A stretch of 64,000 bases of DNA from an uncultured Gammaproteobacteria bacterium (GTDB lineage Bacteria; Patescibacteriota; Patescibacteriia; UBA11705): NCBI GenBank assembly GCA_964413735.1, contig CAYPSS010000004.1, positions 39,538 through 103,537 of the forward strand, read 5' to 3'. The position numbers and the translations under genes are program-made. The notes beneath the pieces were generated by a model. That model was given only the letters and a program-made list of their open reading frames with translations. It was not told the origin of the DNA and did no database searches. Positions 3,058 through 59,363 of the stretch are shown here, in pieces (within the stretch, counting starts at the first letter, position 1; each line of letters begins with the position of its first letter).

Positions 3058-3930
3058 ATGAGCGGATTAGGTCGTGGCTTGGGATCGTTGATTCCCAATA
3101 AAAAGGTGATTGATCAAGCAATTAGTGAAGAATATAAACCATTATTAGTTGATGACAATAAACAAGTTATAGAATTACCGGTGGAGAAAATTGATGTTAA
3201 TCCTCATCAACCGCGTCAAGTTTTCAATCATGCTGATTTGGAAGATTTGATAAATTCAATTCGTGATTATGGGATTATTCAACCATTAATCGTGACCAAG
3301 CAAGATAATCGTTATGAATTGATTGCCGGAGAAAGACGATTACGTGCCGCTAAAATTTTGGCTTTGAAAACCGTTCCTTGCTTGATTCGCGAAGCTGATG
3401 AACAGCAAAAATTGGAATTGGCAATTATTGAAAATGTGCAACGGGCAAATTTAAATCCCATTGAAGAAGCGATTGCTTATCAAAGATTAATGGATCAATT
3501 TAATTTAAATCAAGAACAGGTGGCGGATCGGGTGGGGAAATCTCGTTCTGCTATTGCCAATACGATTCGTTTACTTAATTTACCAGAACAGGTGCAAAAA
3601 GCCTTGGTGGACAAGAAAATCACCGAGGGCCATGCACGGGTGATTGCCGGAATTGACGATGAAAATGAACAGTTGACATTTTTAGCCAAAATATTAGAAT
3701 ATAATTTCACGGTTCGTGATGCGGAGCGAGAAAGCCGAAAATTGCAACCAGTGGTCAAGAGATCGGCGCGTGCCCCATTTGATCCGACTTTGGAATCAAT
3801 AAAGGAACGCTTGCGTTCCAGTTTGGCTACCAAGGTGGAAATAAAGAAAAAATCCGGTAAAGGGCAAATTATTATTAATTTTTATTCAGAGGAGGAATTT
3901 AATGATCTAGTAAATAAGATTTCCGATTAA
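3058..3930 (+). CDS. parB: Chromosome partitioning protein ParB/Spo0J
   Basis: 290 aa. ParB box GIIQPLIV...GERRLRAAK and an HTH region; immediately downstream of parA. Confidence 0.9.
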   Translation: MSGLGRGLGSLIPNKKVIDQAISEEYKPLLVDDNKQVIELPVEKIDVNPHQPRQVFNHADLEDLINSIRDYGIIQPLIVTKQDNRYELIAGERRLRAAKILALKTVPCLIREADEQQKLELAIIENVQRANLNPIEEAIAYQRLMDQFNLNQEQVADRVGKSRSAIANTIRLLNLPEQVQKALVDKKITEGHARVIAGIDDENEQLTFLAKILEYNFTVRDAERESRKLQPVVKRSARAPFDPTLESIKERLRSSLATKVEIKKKSGKGQIIINFYSEEEFNDLVNKISD

Positions 3931-3931
3931 T

Positions 3932-4504
3932 ATGAAAAAAGCAATTTTATTAAGTTTATTGTTAGTGGGGGTGATGATTTTTTCCGGCTGTGTGAAAAAT
4001 AATGTTCCGGAAGATTATGGTCAACCAACGGTCCAATCTTCTTTGATTTTGGATCAAGAAAAAGTTAAGGAAAATGTTGATGGATGGGTGGTTTTTACCA
4101 ATCCGCAATTTCGTTATGAATTGCGTTATCCGAAAAATTGGACTTACAGTTTGGATGATGAAGGAGCTAAGATCTCGGTTCTTTATCCCAAAAATAAACA
4201 GTTGAGTGAAGAATATTTTGGCGCCATGATTGTTCAGGGAATTGTTAATTGGAAGAACAGTTATTCAATTCCGGAATATTATGCTATGGAAGCTTTAAAT
4301 AATTACTATGAGCTTGGTTTTGAGGCGAGATCCTTTATACTCAATGATTACAAGGCTGTGTGGTTTCCCAATGTGGATGGTTTGTATGGAGAATTGCCGG
4401 TACAAGTGGTAGCCATTGATCTTAATGATCGTTTGCTGGAGATTCATTTATTTACCACTGACGAAGAAACTTTGACGGTATTGAACAGTTTAAAATTTTA
4501 TTAG
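3932..4504 (+). CDS. Hypothetical lipoprotein
   Basis: 190 aa. N-terminal signal peptide with lipobox FSGC; no recognisable catalytic motifs. Confidence 0.5.
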   Translation: MKKAILLSLLLVGVMIFSGCVKNNVPEDYGQPTVQSSLILDQEKVKENVDGWVVFTNPQFRYELRYPKNWTYSLDDEGAKISVLYPKNKQLSEEYFGAMIVQGIVNWKNSYSIPEYYAMEALNNYYELGFEARSFILNDYKAVWFPNVDGLYGELPVQVVAIDLNDRLLEIHLFTTDEETLTVLNSLKFY

Positions 4505-53940: not shown

Positions 53941-54000
53941 GGATTTTGTCAGTATCTTGGATTATTAAAAATTGACCGAGGAAATAGGCCTCGGTTTTTT
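53941..54000 (+). repeat. Direct repeat copy B (degenerate duplicate of the HAD 3' end + terminator)
   Basis: 55/60 identical to 50696-50755. It still encodes ...SILDY-stop in frame, but without an upstream gene body; the track ORF 53920..54117 is a remnant, not a gene. Confidence 0.85.
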
Positions 54001-54191
54001 TATTTTTTGAAAAAGTATAATGTTTCACGTATAACGTATAACGTATATATCTATAGCCTTATATTTTCATACCTAATACGTTATACGAATTCCAGATGTT
54101 ATCCACAAGTGAGGTGAAAAAAACGGTTTGATAATTTACGACGCTTTTGTTTTCCCAAATTTTAGAGTAAAAAAAACAAAATTATGAATAT

Positions 54192-54251
54192 TTGCTCGTG
54201 CGTAGATATAGTGGTATAATTAAGTCATATTATACTATATATTGTATTTTG
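54192..54251 (+). promoter_or_regulatory. Putative nrdR-nrdDG promoter (TTGCTC-17-TATAAT, extended TG) overlapped by two AT-rich 16-bp palindrome-like NrdR-box candidates
   Basis: -35 at 54192-54197 and -10 at 54215-54220. Box candidates are gtagatatagtggtat (54203-54218) and atactatatattgtat (54232-54247), about 29 bp apart. Confidence 0.35.
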
Positions 54252-54267
54252 CCAATAAAAGCATATT

Positions 54268-54753
54268 ATGAAATGTCCAGTTTGTTACCATGAAGATACC
54301 AAAGTATTGGATTCTCGTCCGGCCGCCGATGGTTTTGCGATCAGACGGCGTCGAGAATGCAATAAATGCGGTTTTCGTTTTTCCACTTATGAGGAAGTGG
54401 AAATTTTAGAGCTGATGGTGGTGAAAAGAGATGAACGACGCGAATCATATGACCGGGAAAAGTTGGAATCAGGATTGAAAAAAGCCTTAGAAAAACGACC
54501 GGTTGATCATGATCGTTTCCGTCAATTGGTGAATAATATTGAACGAGATATTCAGGTGGAGGTGAAAAATCAAAAAAGCGGTAATGAAATTGCCAGTGAT
54601 AAAATCGGACAATTGGCAATGGAAAATTTGAAAAAGGTTGATAAGGTGGCGTATATTCGTTTTGCTTCGGTTTACAAGGCTTTTGAAGATGCGGAAGAGT
54701 TTATGAAAGAAATACAGGAGTTGGTAAAGAAGCGCAATGGCGGTGATAAATAA
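54268..54753 (+). CDS. nrdR: Transcriptional repressor NrdR (zinc ribbon + ATP-cone)
   Basis: 161 aa. MKCPVCYHEDTKVLDSRPA...RRRECNKCGFRFSTYE is the canonical NrdR N-terminus. Confidence 0.9.
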   Translation: MKCPVCYHEDTKVLDSRPAADGFAIRRRRECNKCGFRFSTYEEVEILELMVVKRDERRESYDREKLESGLKKALEKRPVDHDRFRQLVNNIERDIQVEVKNQKSGNEIASDKIGQLAMENLKKVDKVAYIRFASVYKAFEDAEEFMKEIQELVKKRNGGDK

Positions 54754-54790
54754 AAAATAAATAATAATTAAGCGGTTTAGCTTTTAATCT

Positions 54791-56848
54791 ATGTTTGCAG
54801 GCAACAAACTGATCCAAATTCGCAAGCGTGATGGTCGTATTGTTGATTTTACTCAAGAGAAAATCAATACGGCGATTTTCAAGGCGCTTCAAGCAACCAA
54901 TTCCGGAAGTAAAGAAGATGCGGAAAAATTGGGAGACTTAGTGGTCAAAAAATTAAATGAAAAATTTCATGAACGAACCATTCCGGCGGTGGAAGAAATT
55001 CAAGATATGGTGGAAGACGCCATGATTGAAAATCACTTTATCAAAGCGGCCAAGTCTTATATAATTTATCGCGATCAACATGCGAAAATGCGTGACATTG
55101 ATGCGATGATCAATTCCGATCAATTAATGGAAAGTTATTTGAATAGTACCGATTGGCGTGTCAAAGAAAATTCCAACATGGATTATTCTTTGCAAGGTTT
55201 GAATAACTATGTGGCGTCTACGATTAGTTCTCATTATTGGCTTAATAAAGTTTATCCGCCAAATATCAAAGAAGCGCATGTGGAAGGTGATATTCATATT
55301 CATGATTTGCAATTATTATCCGCTTATTGTTGCGGTTGGGATTTGCACGATATTTTATTGCGCGGTTTTGGTGGTGTGCGTGGCAAGGTAACCAGTAAAC
55401 CACCGAAACATTTTCGTACCGCACTCGGACAATTGGTAAATTTTTTCTATACTTTGCAGGGTGAATCAGCCGGGGCGCAAGCGGTTTCCAGTTTAGATAC
55501 TTATTTAGCGCCATTTATTCGTTATGACAAATTGGAATACAAAGAGGTCAAACAAGCATTGCAAGAATTTCTTTTTAATATGAATGTTCCGACTCGCGTC
55601 GGGTTCCAAACTCCGTTTACCAATGTGACTTTGGATTTGTTTGTACCGGAAAATGTGAAGAACGAAGCGGTGATCATCGGTGGTCAACCGCAACCGGAAA
55701 AATATGGTGAATTTCAAAAAGAAATGGATATTTTTAATGAAGCGTTTGTGGATGTGATGCTCGATGGTGATAGTCATGGTCGCGTTTTCGGTTTTCCCAT
55801 TCCTACTTATAATGTAACGCCGGATTGGAATTGGGATGATCATATTATTATGAAAATTATGGAAATGACCGCCAAATATGGTATTCCGTATTTTTCCAAT
55901 TTTATTAATTCTGACATGAAGCCCGAGGACGCACGCAGTATGTGTTGTCGCTTACGTTTGGATAATCGTGAATTGCGCAAACGCGGGGGAGGATTATTTG
56001 GTGCTAACCCGTTGACCGGTTCAATCGGCGTGGTGACTTTGAATTTACCGCGAATCGGATTTTTGGCCAAAGATAAAGATGAGTTTTTTAAGCGGGTTGC
56101 CGATTTAATGGATATTGCCAGGCAATCACTTGATATTAAACGTAAAGTATTGGAAGAATTTACGGAATCAGGGTTATATCCATATTCTCGATTTTACTTA
56201 AGTACTATCAAGGAAAGATTTGGTGAATTTTGGAAGAATCATTTTAATACCATTGGATTAAATGGGATGAATGAAGCGGCGTTGAATTTATTGGGGCAAG
56301 ATATTACTACGGTGGAGGGTCATAAATTTGCGCGTCAAACTCTTGATTTTATGCGTGATCGATTGATGGATTATCAAAATGAAACCAATCAGCTTTTTAA
56401 CTTGGAAGCAACGCCGGCCGAAGGGACCTCATATCGTTTTGCGCGTCTTGATAAAAAGAAATTTCCGGATATTATTGTGGCTAATGAAAAACAAGTTCAG
56501 GAAAACGGTGCCGAACCTTACTATACCAATTCATCACAATTACCGGTGGGTTATACCGATGATGTGTTTGAAGCCTTGAAATTGCAAGATGATTTACAAA
56601 CCAGATATACGGGCGGTACGGTATTGCATGGTTTTATTGGGGAGAAAATGCCCTCGGCGGAAAGTACCAAATCTTTGGTCAAGAAAATAGCGGAAAATTT
56701 CCGTTTGCCGTATTTTACCATTACTCCGACCTTTAGTATTTGTCCCAAACATGGTTATATTGCCGGTGAACATGAATATTGCCCTCGTTGTGATGAGGAG
56801 ATGGGTTATGTGTCCGGTTCTTCTTTGGAACAGCAACTTCAGGGATAG
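54791..56848 (+). CDS. nrdD: Anaerobic ribonucleoside-triphosphate reductase NrdD (class III), body lacking the canonical C-terminal glycyl-radical segment
   Basis: 685 aa. N-terminal ATP-cone (KRDGRIVDF); the class III RNR core; C-terminus CPKHGY...CPRCDEEMGYVSG ends before the usual RVxGY...NxGKxxE tail. Confidence 0.85.
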   Translation: MFAGNKLIQIRKRDGRIVDFTQEKINTAIFKALQATNSGSKEDAEKLGDLVVKKLNEKFHERTIPAVEEIQDMVEDAMIENHFIKAAKSYIIYRDQHAKMRDIDAMINSDQLMESYLNSTDWRVKENSNMDYSLQGLNNYVASTISSHYWLNKVYPPNIKEAHVEGDIHIHDLQLLSAYCCGWDLHDILLRGFGGVRGKVTSKPPKHFRTALGQLVNFFYTLQGESAGAQAVSSLDTYLAPFIRYDKLEYKEVKQALQEFLFNMNVPTRVGFQTPFTNVTLDLFVPENVKNEAVIIGGQPQPEKYGEFQKEMDIFNEAFVDVMLDGDSHGRVFGFPIPTYNVTPDWNWDDHIIMKIMEMTAKYGIPYFSNFINSDMKPEDARSMCCRLRLDNRELRKRGGGLFGANPLTGSIGVVTLNLPRIGFLAKDKDEFFKRVADLMDIARQSLDIKRKVLEEFTESGLYPYSRFYLSTIKERFGEFWKNHFNTIGLNGMNEAALNLLGQDITTVEGHKFARQTLDFMRDRLMDYQNETNQLFNLEATPAEGTSYRFARLDKKKFPDIIVANEKQVQENGAEPYYTNSSQLPVGYTDDVFEALKLQDDLQTRYTGGTVLHGFIGEKMPSAESTKSLVKKIAENFRLPYFTITPTFSICPKHGYIAGEHEYCPRCDEEMGYVSGSSLEQQLQG

Positions 56849-56940
56849 TTTGTGGATAAATCAAGGGTTTAAATCTTATTTAAAAAGTAATAAAATATAA
56901 ATAACAAATAATATTTATTCATATAATCGCGTTTGATTAC

Positions 56941-57126
56941 ATGAATAAAAAAAAGAAAAATAAAAGTATGTCATCAAAACAACTGGAAAGACAGAAGTGC
57001 GAAATTTACTCCCGCGTGGTAGGGTATTTAAGTCCGGTTAATCGTTGGAATAAGGGTAAACAAGCGGAATTCGGTGACCGTCGCGAATTTGATAAAATGT
57101 TGACCGTTAGCGGTGATAATCTTTAA
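56941..57126 (+). CDS. Stand-alone NrdD C-terminal glycyl-radical segment (61 aa)
   Basis: The peptide ...CEIYSRVVGYLSPVNRWNKGKQAEFGDRREF matches the NrdD glycyl-radical motif (RVCGYLGSP...NAGKQEE in E. coli). It is separated from the nrdD body by about 90 bp with stops in all frames. Confidence 0.55.
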   Translation: MNKKKKNKSMSSKQLERQKCEIYSRVVGYLSPVNRWNKGKQAEFGDRREFDKMLTVSGDNL

Positions 57127-57189
57127 TCTTATTTAATTACAGCTTAACATATCGAACCCCGATTTCGGGGTTCTTTAATCAAGAGAAAT

Positions 57190-57888
57190 ATGATGATTGG
57201 CGGTTTACAAAAAACAACTTTACTTGATTATCCGGGCAAAGTGGCGGCCACGGTTTTTACCGCCGGTTGCGGTTTCCGTTGTCATTTTTGCCATAATCCG
57301 GAATTGGTTTTGCCGGAAATGGTAAAAAAAGCCAAGTTAATTGCCGAAGAAAAGTTCTTTGAATTTTTGAAATCACGCCATAAGTTATTGGATGCGGTTT
57401 GCATTACCGGTGGTGAACCGACTTTGCATAAAGATTTGGAAGAGTTTATCATTAAAATTAAAAGTTTTGGATTATTGGTAAAATTGGATACCAATGGTAC
57501 GGCACCGCAAATTATTGAAGGATTATTGGCTAAAAATTTATTGGATTATTTGGCCATGGATATCAAAGCTCCTTGGGGAAAATATCATACGGTGGTTGGA
57601 CTTAACCCTGATTTGGCGAAGTTGCAACAAAGTGTTAAAATAATAATAGAAAGTGGAATTGATCATGAGTTTCGTTCAACGGTTTTGCCATCTTTGCATT
57701 CGCGCGAGGATATTATGACGATGGCTGAGCAGGTGATAGGTGCGCGTGCTTATTATTTGCAACAATTTCGTCCTACGGCTAAGCTGGTTAATGGTCAGTA
57801 TGTTAGAGAGAAAAAATATTCCGTGCGTGAATTGGAAGAAATTTGTCAAAGTTTAAGTTCCATATTTAAAATTTGTAAAGTGCGATAA
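57190..57888 (+). CDS. nrdG: Anaerobic RNR activating enzyme NrdG (radical SAM)
   Basis: 232 aa. Canonical Cx3Cx2C CGFRCHFCHNPE. Confidence 0.85.
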   Translation: MMIGGLQKTTLLDYPGKVAATVFTAGCGFRCHFCHNPELVLPEMVKKAKLIAEEKFFEFLKSRHKLLDAVCITGGEPTLHKDLEEFIIKIKSFGLLVKLDTNGTAPQIIEGLLAKNLLDYLAMDIKAPWGKYHTVVGLNPDLAKLQQSVKIIIESGIDHEFRSTVLPSLHSREDIMTMAEQVIGARAYYLQQFRPTAKLVNGQYVREKKYSVRELEEICQSLSSIFKICKVR

Positions 57889-57895
57889 AAATTTT

Positions 57896-58204
57896 ATGAT
57901 GTCACAAGGAGGTGAGGAATTAAAAAATATCGAACAAATTGTTCGTCAAAATTTAAGTTTAACGCGAGAAATTTTGGAAAGCGTAGAAAAAACACGAAAA
58001 TATATTTTGTGGTTGCGCATTTTGAGTATTGTAAAGCTGGTGGTGATTTTATTACCGATTGTTTTGGCTCTAATTTATTTACCACCGATTTTCACCCGCG
58101 CTTTTCAGCAATATAGTGATATTTTCGGTCAAATGCAAAGTTTACAGCAGGGCAATATCGGTGATATGGACCCGAATTTGATGAAGGGCATTTTAAATCG
58201 TTGA
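57896..58204 (+). CDS. Hypothetical small membrane protein
   Basis: 102 aa, one TM helix; no motifs. Confidence 0.4.
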   Translation: MMSQGGEELKNIEQIVRQNLSLTREILESVEKTRKYILWLRILSIVKLVVILLPIVLALIYLPPIFTRAFQQYSDIFGQMQSLQQGNIGDMDPNLMKGILNR

Positions 58205-58268: not shown

Positions 58269-59363
58269 ATGAATGATTTGAAATCACAATTGGTGGAATT
58301 GCAAGAACGCTTTGAAAAAGCGTATTTTTTGTTAAATTTACCGGAAATTAAAAGTGAAATAATTGAAAAAGAAAATCAGATGACCCAGCCTGATTTTTGG
58401 CAGGATCAACAACGCGCCAAGCAAATCGCGCAAGAATTAAGTGATTTGAAGCGCGAAGTGACGCAGTGGGAAGATTTCAAAAAACAATTGTTTGATATGA
58501 GTGAAATACTGGAATTGGATTTGGATGATCAAAGTGTTAATTTGCGAGAAGATTTTATGACCCAATTGCAAACCTTGGAAAAACAATTTAATCAAATGGA
58601 ATTGGATTTGCTTTTGGGCGGAGAATATGACAAACAATCGGCGGTTATCAGTATTTATGCCGGAACCGGTGGAACCGACGCGCAGGATTGGGCGGAAATG
58701 CTCTTACGTATGTATTTGCGTTTTTGTGAACAAAGAAATTGGAAAACGGAAATTATCAATATTTCCGAAGGTAATGAAGCGGGTATCAAAAGTGTACAAA
58801 TTGAAGTGGTCGGTCGTTATGCTTACGGTTATTTGAAATCCGAAGCCGGAGTGCATCGTTTGGTTCGTATTTCACCGTTTGATGCGGAAAAGATGCGTCA
58901 CACTTCGTTTGCCATGGTGGAAGTTTTGCCTTTGTTTGATGCCGAAGTGGTAATTGATATTAATCCGGAAGATTTGAAAATTGATACTTTTCGGGCTGGT
59001 GGTCATGGCGGTCAAAGTGTGAATACTACAGATTCGGCGGTACGCATTAAACATGAACCAACTGGTATTGTGGTGCAATGCCAAAATGAGCGATCGCAAA
59101 TGCAAAACAAGGAAAAAGCTTTGAAAATTTTGCAGGCTAAACTTAAACAATATTATGAAACTGAAGTGGAAGAAGAACGTCAAAAACTGCGCGGAGAATT
59201 TACCGAAGCGGCTTGGGGTAATCAAGCGCGTTCTTATGTCTTGCATCCTTATAAAATGGTAAAAGATCATCGCACCGATGCGCAAACCGCGGATGTGGAA
59301 CGAGTTTTAGACGGAGATTTGATTTTATTTATCGAGGCTTACTTGAGGCAATTGCAAAAATAG
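58269..59363 (+). CDS. prfB: Peptide chain release factor 2 (contiguous frame, no +1 frameshift site)
   Basis: 364 aa. SPF tripeptide (RISPFDA) and GGQ (GGHGGQSVN). The N-terminal region is in the same frame, so no programmed frameshift is needed. Confidence 0.85.
   Translation: MNDLKSQLVELQERFEKAYFLLNLPEIKSEIIEKENQMTQPDFWQDQQRAKQIAQELSDLKREVTQWEDFKKQLFDMSEILELDLDDQSVNLREDFMTQLQTLEKQFNQMELDLLLGGEYDKQSAVISIYAGTGGTDAQDWAEMLLRMYLRFCEQRNWKTEIINISEGNEAGIKSVQIEVVGRYAYGYLKSEAGVHRLVRISPFDAEKMRHTSFAMVEVLPLFDAEVVIDINPEDLKIDTFRAGGHGGQSVNTTDSAVRIKHEPTGIVVQCQNERSQMQNKEKALKILQAKLKQYYETEVEEERQKLRGEFTEAAWGNQARSYVLHPYKMVKDHRTDAQTADVERVLDGDLILFIEAYLRQLQK

Follow-up and report, generated by a model that had tools for sequence, protein, structure and literature searches.

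The nrd operon of an uncultured bacterium of the Patescibacteriota, contained in a stretch of 64,000 nucleotides (nt) of contig CAYPSS010000004.1 (hereafter the window, to whose full length all coordinates refer), very probably encodes a functional class III, or anaerobic, ribonucleotide reductase (RNR) composed of two separately translated polypeptides, as judged by comparison of its sequence with those of its relatives. The catalytic protein NrdD is divided there between a large gene, nrdD-large, which retains all the catalytic hallmarks (ATP-cone, MCCR finger loop and zinc ribbon), and a small downstream gene, nrdD-small, which carries the glycyl-radical loop. The genes of the locus lie on the + strand in the order nrdR, nrdD-large, spacer, nrdD-small, stem-loop and nrdG. 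A split at this conserved hinge, which detaches the radical site, is unlike any known split RNR and appears to be undescribed. The elements of the two pieces are as follows.

54791..56848, + strand: nrdD-large, 685 amino acids (aa), with ATP-cone, catalytic barrel, MCCR finger loop and zinc ribbon, and without glycyl-radical loop (Pfam NRDD and ATP-cone, NF006126)
55940..55951, + strand: finger-loop motif M384-C385-C386-R387 (atg tgt tgt cgc), with the predicted thiyl-radical cysteine receiving the radical from the glycine
56741..56791, + strand: zinc ribbon C651-x2-H654...C664-x2-C667, the final conserved element of nrdD-large (from the sequence)
56792..56848, + strand: acidic C-terminal tail DEEMGYVSGSSLEQQLQG and TAG stop of nrdD-large, net charge -4
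56849..56940 (to 56967 with the conserved start), + strand: AT-rich spacer of 92 nt, with a stop in each forward frame
56941..57126, + strand: nrdD-small, 61 aa from the ATG at 56941 or 52 aa from the ATG at 56968 (Pfam NRDD, 4COI alignment)
57022..57024, + strand: GGG codon of Gly28 (61-aa form), or Gly19 (52-aa form), predicted to bear the radical within RVVGY

The 685-aa product ends in ...CPRCDEEMGYVSGSSLEQQLQG*, its stop lying 18 residues past the second CxxC of the zinc ribbon, which bears out the preliminary description of this DNA, in which the open reading frame (ORF) was said to stop just past the zinc-site cysteines. It covers positions 1-532 of the 562 of Pfam NRDD (PF13597; 619 bits, cut-off 26) and 3-651 of the 684 of NCBIfam NF006126 (1057 bits, cut-off 548), and aligns with residues 101-610 of the Thermotoga maritima NrdD structure 4COI. 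The 61-aa ORF at 56941-57126 contains CEIYSRVVGYLSPVNRWNKGKQAEFGDRREF, including the RVVGY...WNKGK glycyl-radical loop; it matches positions 531-562 of the 562 of NRDD (E 1e-9) and 649-682 of the 684 of NF006126, and aligns with residues 611-649 of 4COI. The location of the glycyl-radical motif on this ORF is thereby confirmed, as is the alignment of the peptide to the NrdD C-terminus that had been proposed as a check. At the level of sequence, the two products are exactly complementary parts of the NrdD models and of the solved structure, and RVxGY, which NrdD family members carry on the same polypeptide, is absent from nrdD-large and found only when the pair is taken together. The finger loop of the large subunit, of the double-cysteine class MCCR described alongside MGCR (PMC9669993), is invariant in 48 homologues; the zinc ribbon, with four predicted Cys/His ligands, is common to split and fused homologues, and the tail motif CDEEMGY is kept in the split clade presented below. 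As for the small ORF, its sole Pfam match at E<=0.01 is NRDD, its NCBIfam matches are all NrdD models, and at the same Pfam threshold the Gly_radical family of pyruvate formate-lyase (PFL) is not matched; by these profiles the peptide is NrdD-derived and not of the PFL family. All the invariant residues of the radical loop (E, Y, R, V, G, W, N, G, K, E, R) are present in it, and the glycine of RVVGY is invariant in 42 small proteins. Formation of the radical on Gly28 is expected from what is known of the NrdD family.

The start shared among homologues of the small ORF is the ATG at 56968 (MSSKQLERQKC..., 52 aa). The Lys-rich N-terminus attributed to it in the preliminary description is present as an extension from the ATG at 56941 but is not conserved in sequence; since basic in-frame extensions nevertheless occur in several close relatives, the true start (56941 or 56968) is ambiguous. 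In a 42-codon core compared with 16 relatives, the proportion of synonymous differences (pS) is at or near saturation (0.60-0.99), that of non-synonymous differences (pN) is 0.05-0.34, and dN/dS is 0.12-0.20 where dS is estimable, values which indicate that purifying selection is acting on the small ORF.

Among the matches listed, the small-ORF homologues are short without exception (120/120, 35-102 aa). An exhaustive search with a hidden Markov model (HMM) profile of the 42 small proteins against 1.84 billion cluster representatives (E<=1e-3) gave 5083 matches; 149 of the best 150 are proteins of 48-149 aa, and among 147 newly returned sequences 146 are short and all 147 are initiated by a start codon. 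The only full-length match among the latter, P0361, comes from a clade of Paceibacterota with fused NrdD, and both architectures therefore exist in Patescibacteria. Pfam, NCBIfam and PHROGs hold no dedicated model of the small protein, which matches only the C-terminal end of full-length NrdD models, well under the NCBIfam cut-offs, and is labelled in source records either as “hypothetical” or with the name of the full enzyme. Its subfamilies are distinguished as follows: subfamily 1 is the window type, beginning M-T/S-S-x-K-L-E-R-Q-K-C-E; subfamily 2 bears an N-terminal ENGDLxLxDGxIIP motif; subfamily 3 is the Endomicrobia type, with a resemblance to amphipathic helices in both the tail of the large subunit and the N-terminus of the small one; and subfamily 4 consists of proteins of 100-146 aa in which a CxxC...CxxC zinc ribbon of their own precedes the radical loop. 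Zinc-ribbon-bearing small subunits, which represent a second type of split, were observed in L074, in L106, L112, L135, L148, L156 and L164, and in P0352 and P0381. The amphipathic-like helices (e.g. KNEKVEEIDSQIKILENMLYAN in the large tail and MTVNEIQEKIHELKTQKDSVEGTK in the small N-terminus) were observed in L050, L052, L053, L056, L043 and L038, loci of Endomicrobia and two other lineages, where a coiled coil between the helices of the two subunits may tether them as a heterodimer.

Exactly the same 61-aa protein is found on 8 contigs, obtained in independent sequencing runs. On the six contigs examined the small gene is directly followed by nrdG (6/6), and five of these hold nrdR and the complete large gene upstream, the other one (L003) starting inside the large gene. 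Because the same layout recurs on the 8 independent contigs, the split is neither a chance event nor an artefact. The closest 120 homologues of the large subunit (69-100% identity) belong to Falkowbacteria, Kuenenbacteria, Uhrbacteria, Buchananbacteria and other Patescibacteria; 119 of them are devoid of RVxGY and end 10-30 residues past CPxCDEEMGY, P0232 being the only fused one.

To appreciate the spread of this architecture, 81 NrdD loci (the window and 80 fetched from species-representative genomes) were compared and classified by tblastn and ORF tracing: 36 are split, 44 are fused and one has no small gene through the contig end. Every locus at least 65% identical to the window protein is split, which settles the comparison of fused and split nrdD in related genomes that the preliminary description had called for. 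The split is carried by bacteria of the Candidate Phyla Radiation (CPR), Halothermothrix, Halanaerobiaceae, Synergistota (Aminiphilus), Endomicrobia, Desulfurellales, Spirochaetia, Nealsonbacteria, and DPANN and other archaea, and the break is constant, its position being the hinge that follows the zinc ribbon and directly precedes (C/T)E(V/I)YSRVVGY. In a neighbour-joining tree of the large subunits, CPR, Halanaerobiales, Synergistota and archaea share one large split clade, four or more additional split lineages lie isolated and nested among fused ones, and the fused L023 and P0232 fall inside or beside the split clade; this topology would correspond to roughly five independent fissions, or to fissions followed by re-fusions. 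Several of the metagenome-assembled genomes (L007, L011, L012, L015, L016 and L019) have nrd loci clearly of the CPR/Falkowbacteria type but bear the title “uncultured Gammaproteobacteria bacterium”, which probably reflects a wrong taxonomic label in the source assemblies.

The layout of the split loci is variable. Many small ORFs have a GGAGG ribosome-binding site of their own, the distance between large and small genes goes from -20 (overlap) to +411 nt, and the order large-nrdG-small is found in Synergistota and Halanaerobiales, the small ORF being 700-970 nt away in several lineages. In the cultured Halanaerobium saccharolyticum DSM 6643, an intein-containing large gene is followed by nrdG and then by a 57-aa “hypothetical protein”, HSACCH_01599. 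This variable spacing and order, together with the presence of their own ribosome-binding sites, rules out splicing or translational bypass as the mechanism in general. In two relatives the spacer is long and contains unrelated repeats (L011:6065-6475 and L019:6077-6387): one is filled with a tandem repeat of ~22 nt, (gcgttgtgagcagtgtggc)n, and the other contains a repeated aattagaataatt-like, MITE-like (miniature inverted-repeat transposable element) sequence.

The small gene was also retrieved in viruses. A scan of IMG/VR with the small-protein alignment gave 343 matching stretches, the best 80 of which were classified; the neighbourhood of these viral loci was inspected over +/-4 kb, and two related contigs were extended, one of them to 91% coverage. 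Among these best 80 of 343, the small ORF stands alone in 66 and belongs to a fused NrdD in 11. An ORF resembling NrdD-large by the large-subunit HMM lies within +/-4 kb in 13 of the 80 loci, and 11 of these 13 are the fused genes; the two split-but-adjacent loci are L092, with the order large-nrdG-small, and L100, with the small gene directly 5' of the large one. Some 64 viral loci (within L087-L166) thus hold an orphan small gene, with no NrdD-large or NrdG within 4 kb (e.g. L121:~3920-4110, L139:3956-4159 and L106:3680-4120), in contexts such as between terminase and portal genes (L121), by a tail lysozyme (L106), by an HNH endonuclease (L123) or by an M23 peptidase (L090). The contig IMGVR_UViG_3300025524_000001 (20.4 kb) encodes a terminase large subunit, DnaD/DnaC-like loaders and a 67-aa small gene tightly packed with ATGA overlaps on both sides, and over the 91% of it that is covered no NrdD-large or NrdG was found at E<=1. 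Such orphan copies are independent evidence for a peptide working in trans with a large subunit whose gene lies elsewhere, presumably in the host. In a collection of cultured phages, tblastn gave three matches only, two of them annotated as nrdD and one unannotated.

These data have to be weighed against other readings of the locus. A 92-nt AT-rich insertion in an essential gene resembles damage when seen in a single sequence, and the preliminary description had accordingly kept a pseudogene or an assembly-induced insertion among its options. A non-functional nrdD of this kind, or one produced by an indel error, was rejected and is next to impossible: the eight independent assemblies are identical, the glycine motif is missing from 119 of 120 close homologues, which are truncated alike, and both pieces are under strong purifying selection, with catalytic motifs invariant in large subunits that are 69-100% identical. 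An intervening element that would restore a one-piece NrdD, whether a small intron, a translational bypass or a programmed frameshift, has precedents in the group I introns of the nrdD of phages T4 and Lactococcus 949 (PMC3653736) and would suit a short, AT-rich spacer. However, a scan of 54000-58200 against Rfam at E<=10 gave no intron or ribozyme family, only four matches of chance level, and the fold of the spacer is not significant (z = -2.0; 7/200 shuffles fold equally well), so that an intron or ribozyme was rejected. The stops in all frames noticed in the preliminary description are directly legible in the spacer at 56849-56940, and they also led to the rejection of an intein at the split junction. 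Across lineages the spacer, from an overlap to 411 nt, keeps no conserved core, the small ORF may stand beyond nrdG at 700-970 nt, and start codons and ribosome-binding sites of their own are present at small ORFs, which also occur as orphans in phages; a T4-type group I intron would join exons at a fixed site, whereas here the small gene has its own start codon and both distance and order vary. The small intervening element is therefore very improbable, only slightly less so than a damaged gene. Inteins are common in the NrdD family but not at the split site: those of some relatives lie elsewhere in the large subunit (e.g. P0159, P0185 and L174), none of them at the split junction. Large subunits longer by ~320 aa are numerous in both split and fused clades (P0159, P0185 and P0186, ~1015 aa; L174:2096-5212, 1038 aa; P0405, P0427-P0434, P0437, P0442 and P0447), and matches to intein or LAGLIDADG Pfam families are recorded for some of them.

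It may also be asked whether the large subunit suffices by itself, Gly672 in its tail ...CDEEMGY being the radical site and the small ORF a spare comparable to GrcA. MAFFT repeatedly pairs the DEE-MGYV of the tail with the E-x-E-V-Y-S-R-V-V-G-Y-L of fused enzymes, and “EEMGY” is kept across CPR, Synergistota and some archaeal split forms. Against this, the tail has neither the R-V residues, nor the flanking hairpin, nor any of the WNxGKxxE segment, the tails of split forms from Halanaerobiales, DPANN, Endomicrobia and Spirochaetia have no Gly-Tyr, and the NrdD profile matches end before the tail, all of which makes a self-sufficient large subunit improbable, though somewhat less remote than an intervening element. 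The DEEMGYV of the tail (56792-56812) could be a relic of a radical loop duplicated during fission, or a docking strand. A genuinely two-piece class III RNR, the remaining option of the preliminary description, is strongly supported by the recurring split, the selection on the small ORF, the ribosome-binding sites, the variable gene order and the phage orphans.

With a large subunit devoid of any radical loop, the peptide would be an obligate part of the two-subunit enzyme and not a backup. We propose that this peptide of ~6 kDa binds the large subunit non-covalently and that its RVVGY hairpin enters the barrel beside Cys385/386, its basic N-terminus (ERQK, with the Lys-rich extension if translation starts at 56941) pairing with the large subunit's acidic tail (DEEMGY...). 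NrdG and S-adenosylmethionine would then abstract a hydrogen from Gly28, and the radical would shuttle to the finger-loop cysteine at each turnover as in a one-piece NrdD, the small subunit acting in trans and being possibly expressed from its own promoter beside a conserved DnaA box. What is inferred here is that the peptide docks, that NrdG activates it, that it is exchanged after damage and that the split brings a selective benefit. According to cryo-electron microscopy of Prevotella copri NrdD, the glycyl-radical domain is a mobile rigid body able to leave the barrel (PMC11226230), and a detachable version is therefore physically plausible. The tail following the zinc ribbon is acidic in 31 of the 36 split pairs (mean net charge -3.1; -4 in the window), and the N-terminus of the peptide is basic in 29 of the 36 (+2 in the window, or +7 with the Lys-rich extension); this complementary charge suggests a tethering interface between the two, with a reversed polarity in L074 and helix-helix pairs instead in Endomicrobia. 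A glycyl radical cuts its own backbone on contact with O2. Since the chain that carries it is thus cleaved, the peptide is probably a cheap and exchangeable part.

As to why the enzyme is split, one tentative reading holds that a peptide destroyed by O2, or in high demand, is remade from a DnaA-linked promoter, activated by NrdG and swapped like a cartridge into a long-lived large subunit, and that phages carry the gene of ~150-200 nt to recharge or take over the dNTP (deoxynucleoside triphosphate) synthesis of their host. The main alternative, to which we give slightly less credit, is a neutral fission at a tolerant hinge: a working two-piece NrdD without benefit, whose peptide stays permanently bound and is never exchanged. 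The same hinge has been broken about five times independently with unrelated tails each time, close relatives show a mosaic of fused and split forms (e.g. the fused L023 and P0232), and the split class II RNR NrdJa/NrdJb offers a precedent without known adaptive role, all in keeping with neutrality. Phage small genes without a nearby large or activase gene are nonetheless hard to explain unless the peptide joins a large subunit made elsewhere, and a neutral fission does not readily account for a split retained through saturation of synonymous sites across a large clade, nor for a conserved regulatory motif ahead of the small gene. Several points weigh against our interpretation of the locus as a two-subunit enzyme with an exchangeable peptide. 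The recurrent fission could reflect merely a structurally tolerant hinge, and the benefit of replaceability, which may exist, rests on the analogy with GrcA and on the phage orphans, while a distant NrdD-large gene is possible on those viral contigs seen only over +/-4 kb. In the window itself, the small ORF has no recognisable Shine-Dalgarno sequence and an ambiguous start codon. An AlphaFold prediction of the concatenated large and small products from a shallow alignment (48 large homologues) gave a mean predicted local distance difference test (pLDDT) score of 71.8, and is uninformative for the peptide, scored at ~30.

The other elements of the operon are the following.

54099..54107, + strand: perfect DnaA-box 9-mer (TTATCCACA), 160 nt 5' of nrdR
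54268..54753, + strand: nrdR, 161 aa, transcriptional repressor of nrd genes (Pfam Zn_ribbon_NrdR and ATP-cone)
56851..56859, - strand: perfect DnaA-box 9-mer (TGTGGATAA on the + strand), directly 3' of the nrdD-large stop
56868..56896, + strand: promoter-like TTTAAA-17-TAAAAT (consensus scan and alignment of relatives)
57154..57173, + strand: GC-rich stem-loop GAACCCCG-AUUU-CGGGGUUC, then UUUAAU (folding)
57190..57888, + strand: nrdG, 232 aa, radical-SAM activase (TIGR02495 NrdG2, Pfam Radical_SAM and Fer4_12)

The nrdG gene adjoins nrdD-small, and its product matches the NCBIfam profile TIGR02495 NrdG2 with 210 bits for a cut-off of 131. Of the 17 loci that make up the CPR clade (the window and L007-L022), 15 have a perfect DnaA box 140-350 nt 5' of their first nrd gene. 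The DnaA box of the spacer had been reported at 56853-56861 in the preliminary description; it is indeed perfect and conserved, but its position is 56851-56859. The window and L007-L010 all have TGTGGATAAAT without change right after the stop of the large subunit, in a spacer that otherwise diverges, and ~25 nt 3' of this sequence comes a conserved -10-like AAAAAGT(T/A)ATAAAATA, whose equivalent in the window is TTTAAA-17-TAAAAT; apart from these two short motifs, the spacer varies in length and sequence in relatives. This conservation suggests a putative control of the nrd operon, and of dNTP synthesis, by DnaA in Patescibacteria, and the candidate at 56868-56896 may give the small gene a promoter inside the operon. 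Strict scans for terminators and promoters gave counts no higher than in shuffled sequence, and the stem-loop at 57154-57173 was not called by them. This stem-loop (-15.1 kcal/mol, z = -3.05), which only three U residues follow, may be a terminator, or an attenuator setting the ratio of nrdD (large and small) to nrdG. Upstream of nrdR, AT-rich palindromes at ~54204-54250 (e.g. ATACTATATATTGTAT) resemble the consensus of NrdR boxes and are candidates for such boxes. Downstream of the operon, a release-factor gene at 58269-59363 is a single uninterrupted ORF of 364 aa with no frameshift site; the identical product in L001 matches Pfam PCRF and RF-1, and from the SPF motif of its translation we take it to be RF2.

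Glycyl-radical enzymes are textbook single-chain radical carriers, and to our knowledge GrcA, which serves PFL, is the only detachable radical module. Like nrdD-small, GrcA/YfiD of Escherichia coli and Y06I of phage T4 are small stand-alone proteins made of a glycyl-radical loop, with a phage version; GrcA is activated by the activase of the parent enzyme and supplies its radical in trans to a large catalytic protein, as is proposed here. The analogy drawn in the preliminary description thus holds for the mode of working. It does not extend to the family, GrcA being derived from PFL (Pfam Gly_radical) and the peptide from NrdD, nor to the role, GrcA being the backup of a parent enzyme already equipped with a radical domain, in contrast to the obligate partner of an nrdD-large that has none. 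Formate lyases constitute the one class of glycyl-radical enzymes with known spare-part proteins according to a review of June 2026 (PMC13450708).

Other RNRs in several pieces differ more widely. The class II enzyme NrdJa/NrdJb of Pseudomonas aeruginosa and of Thermus phage phiYS40 is likewise encoded by two consecutive genes with a C-terminal module on the second, and is cited as biochemically active in two pieces in PMC9669993 and PMC3653736. It belongs, however, to another RNR class with a B12 cofactor and is split at another site, NrdJb carrying the reductant-shuttling cysteine and zinc domains and not the radical cofactor. We know of no orphan phage copies of NrdJb alone. In Aeromonas phage Aeh1, the large subunit of an RNR is translated as two pieces, NrdA-a and NrdA-b, which reassemble into an active enzyme (PMC3653736); unlike these, the split of the window has no endonuclease between its pieces, is ancient and widespread, and detaches the radical site. 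The interrupted nrdD genes of phages, namely those of T4 (I-TevII group I intron), Lactococcus phage 949 (intron), Clostridium phage c-st (intein) and Aeromonas phage phiAS4 (fragmented), also consist of multiple coding segments, but in these cases the interruption is taken out of the RNA or the protein, or else is a recent, unexplained break elsewhere in the gene, whereas the junction of the window has no ribozyme or intein and its products stay separate. With the one-piece NrdD-NrdG systems of phage T4, E. coli, T. maritima and P. copri, the window shares the domains, motifs, zinc ribbon, activase and NrdR control, and presumably the chemistry; the difference is that the radical loop is covalently tethered in the former and a separate gene product in the latter. 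No description of a separately encoded glycyl-radical subunit of NrdD was found in the open-access full-text literature or in curated families. Large RNR phylogenies dropped sequences of less than 400 aa and would therefore have missed the small subunit.

For the annotation of NrdD, these results mean that hundreds of large subunits are labelled as complete while being devoid of a radical site, their small partner being called “hypothetical” or missed. The split enzyme offers a natural system to study how an activase recognises a minimal substrate of ~50 residues and how the barrel accommodates a docking radical loop, and in Halanaerobium saccharolyticum DSM 6643 a cultured carrier makes the idea directly testable. 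If the peptide is indeed exchanged as proposed, this would be the first spare-part system of an RNR, and its viral copies the smallest known viral metabolic gene supplying a protein radical cofactor. The phage copies point to a new class of very small auxiliary genes, and the distribution of the split suggests a strategy of O2-damage repair in organisms with tiny genomes, that is CPR bacteria, DPANN archaea and endosymbionts.

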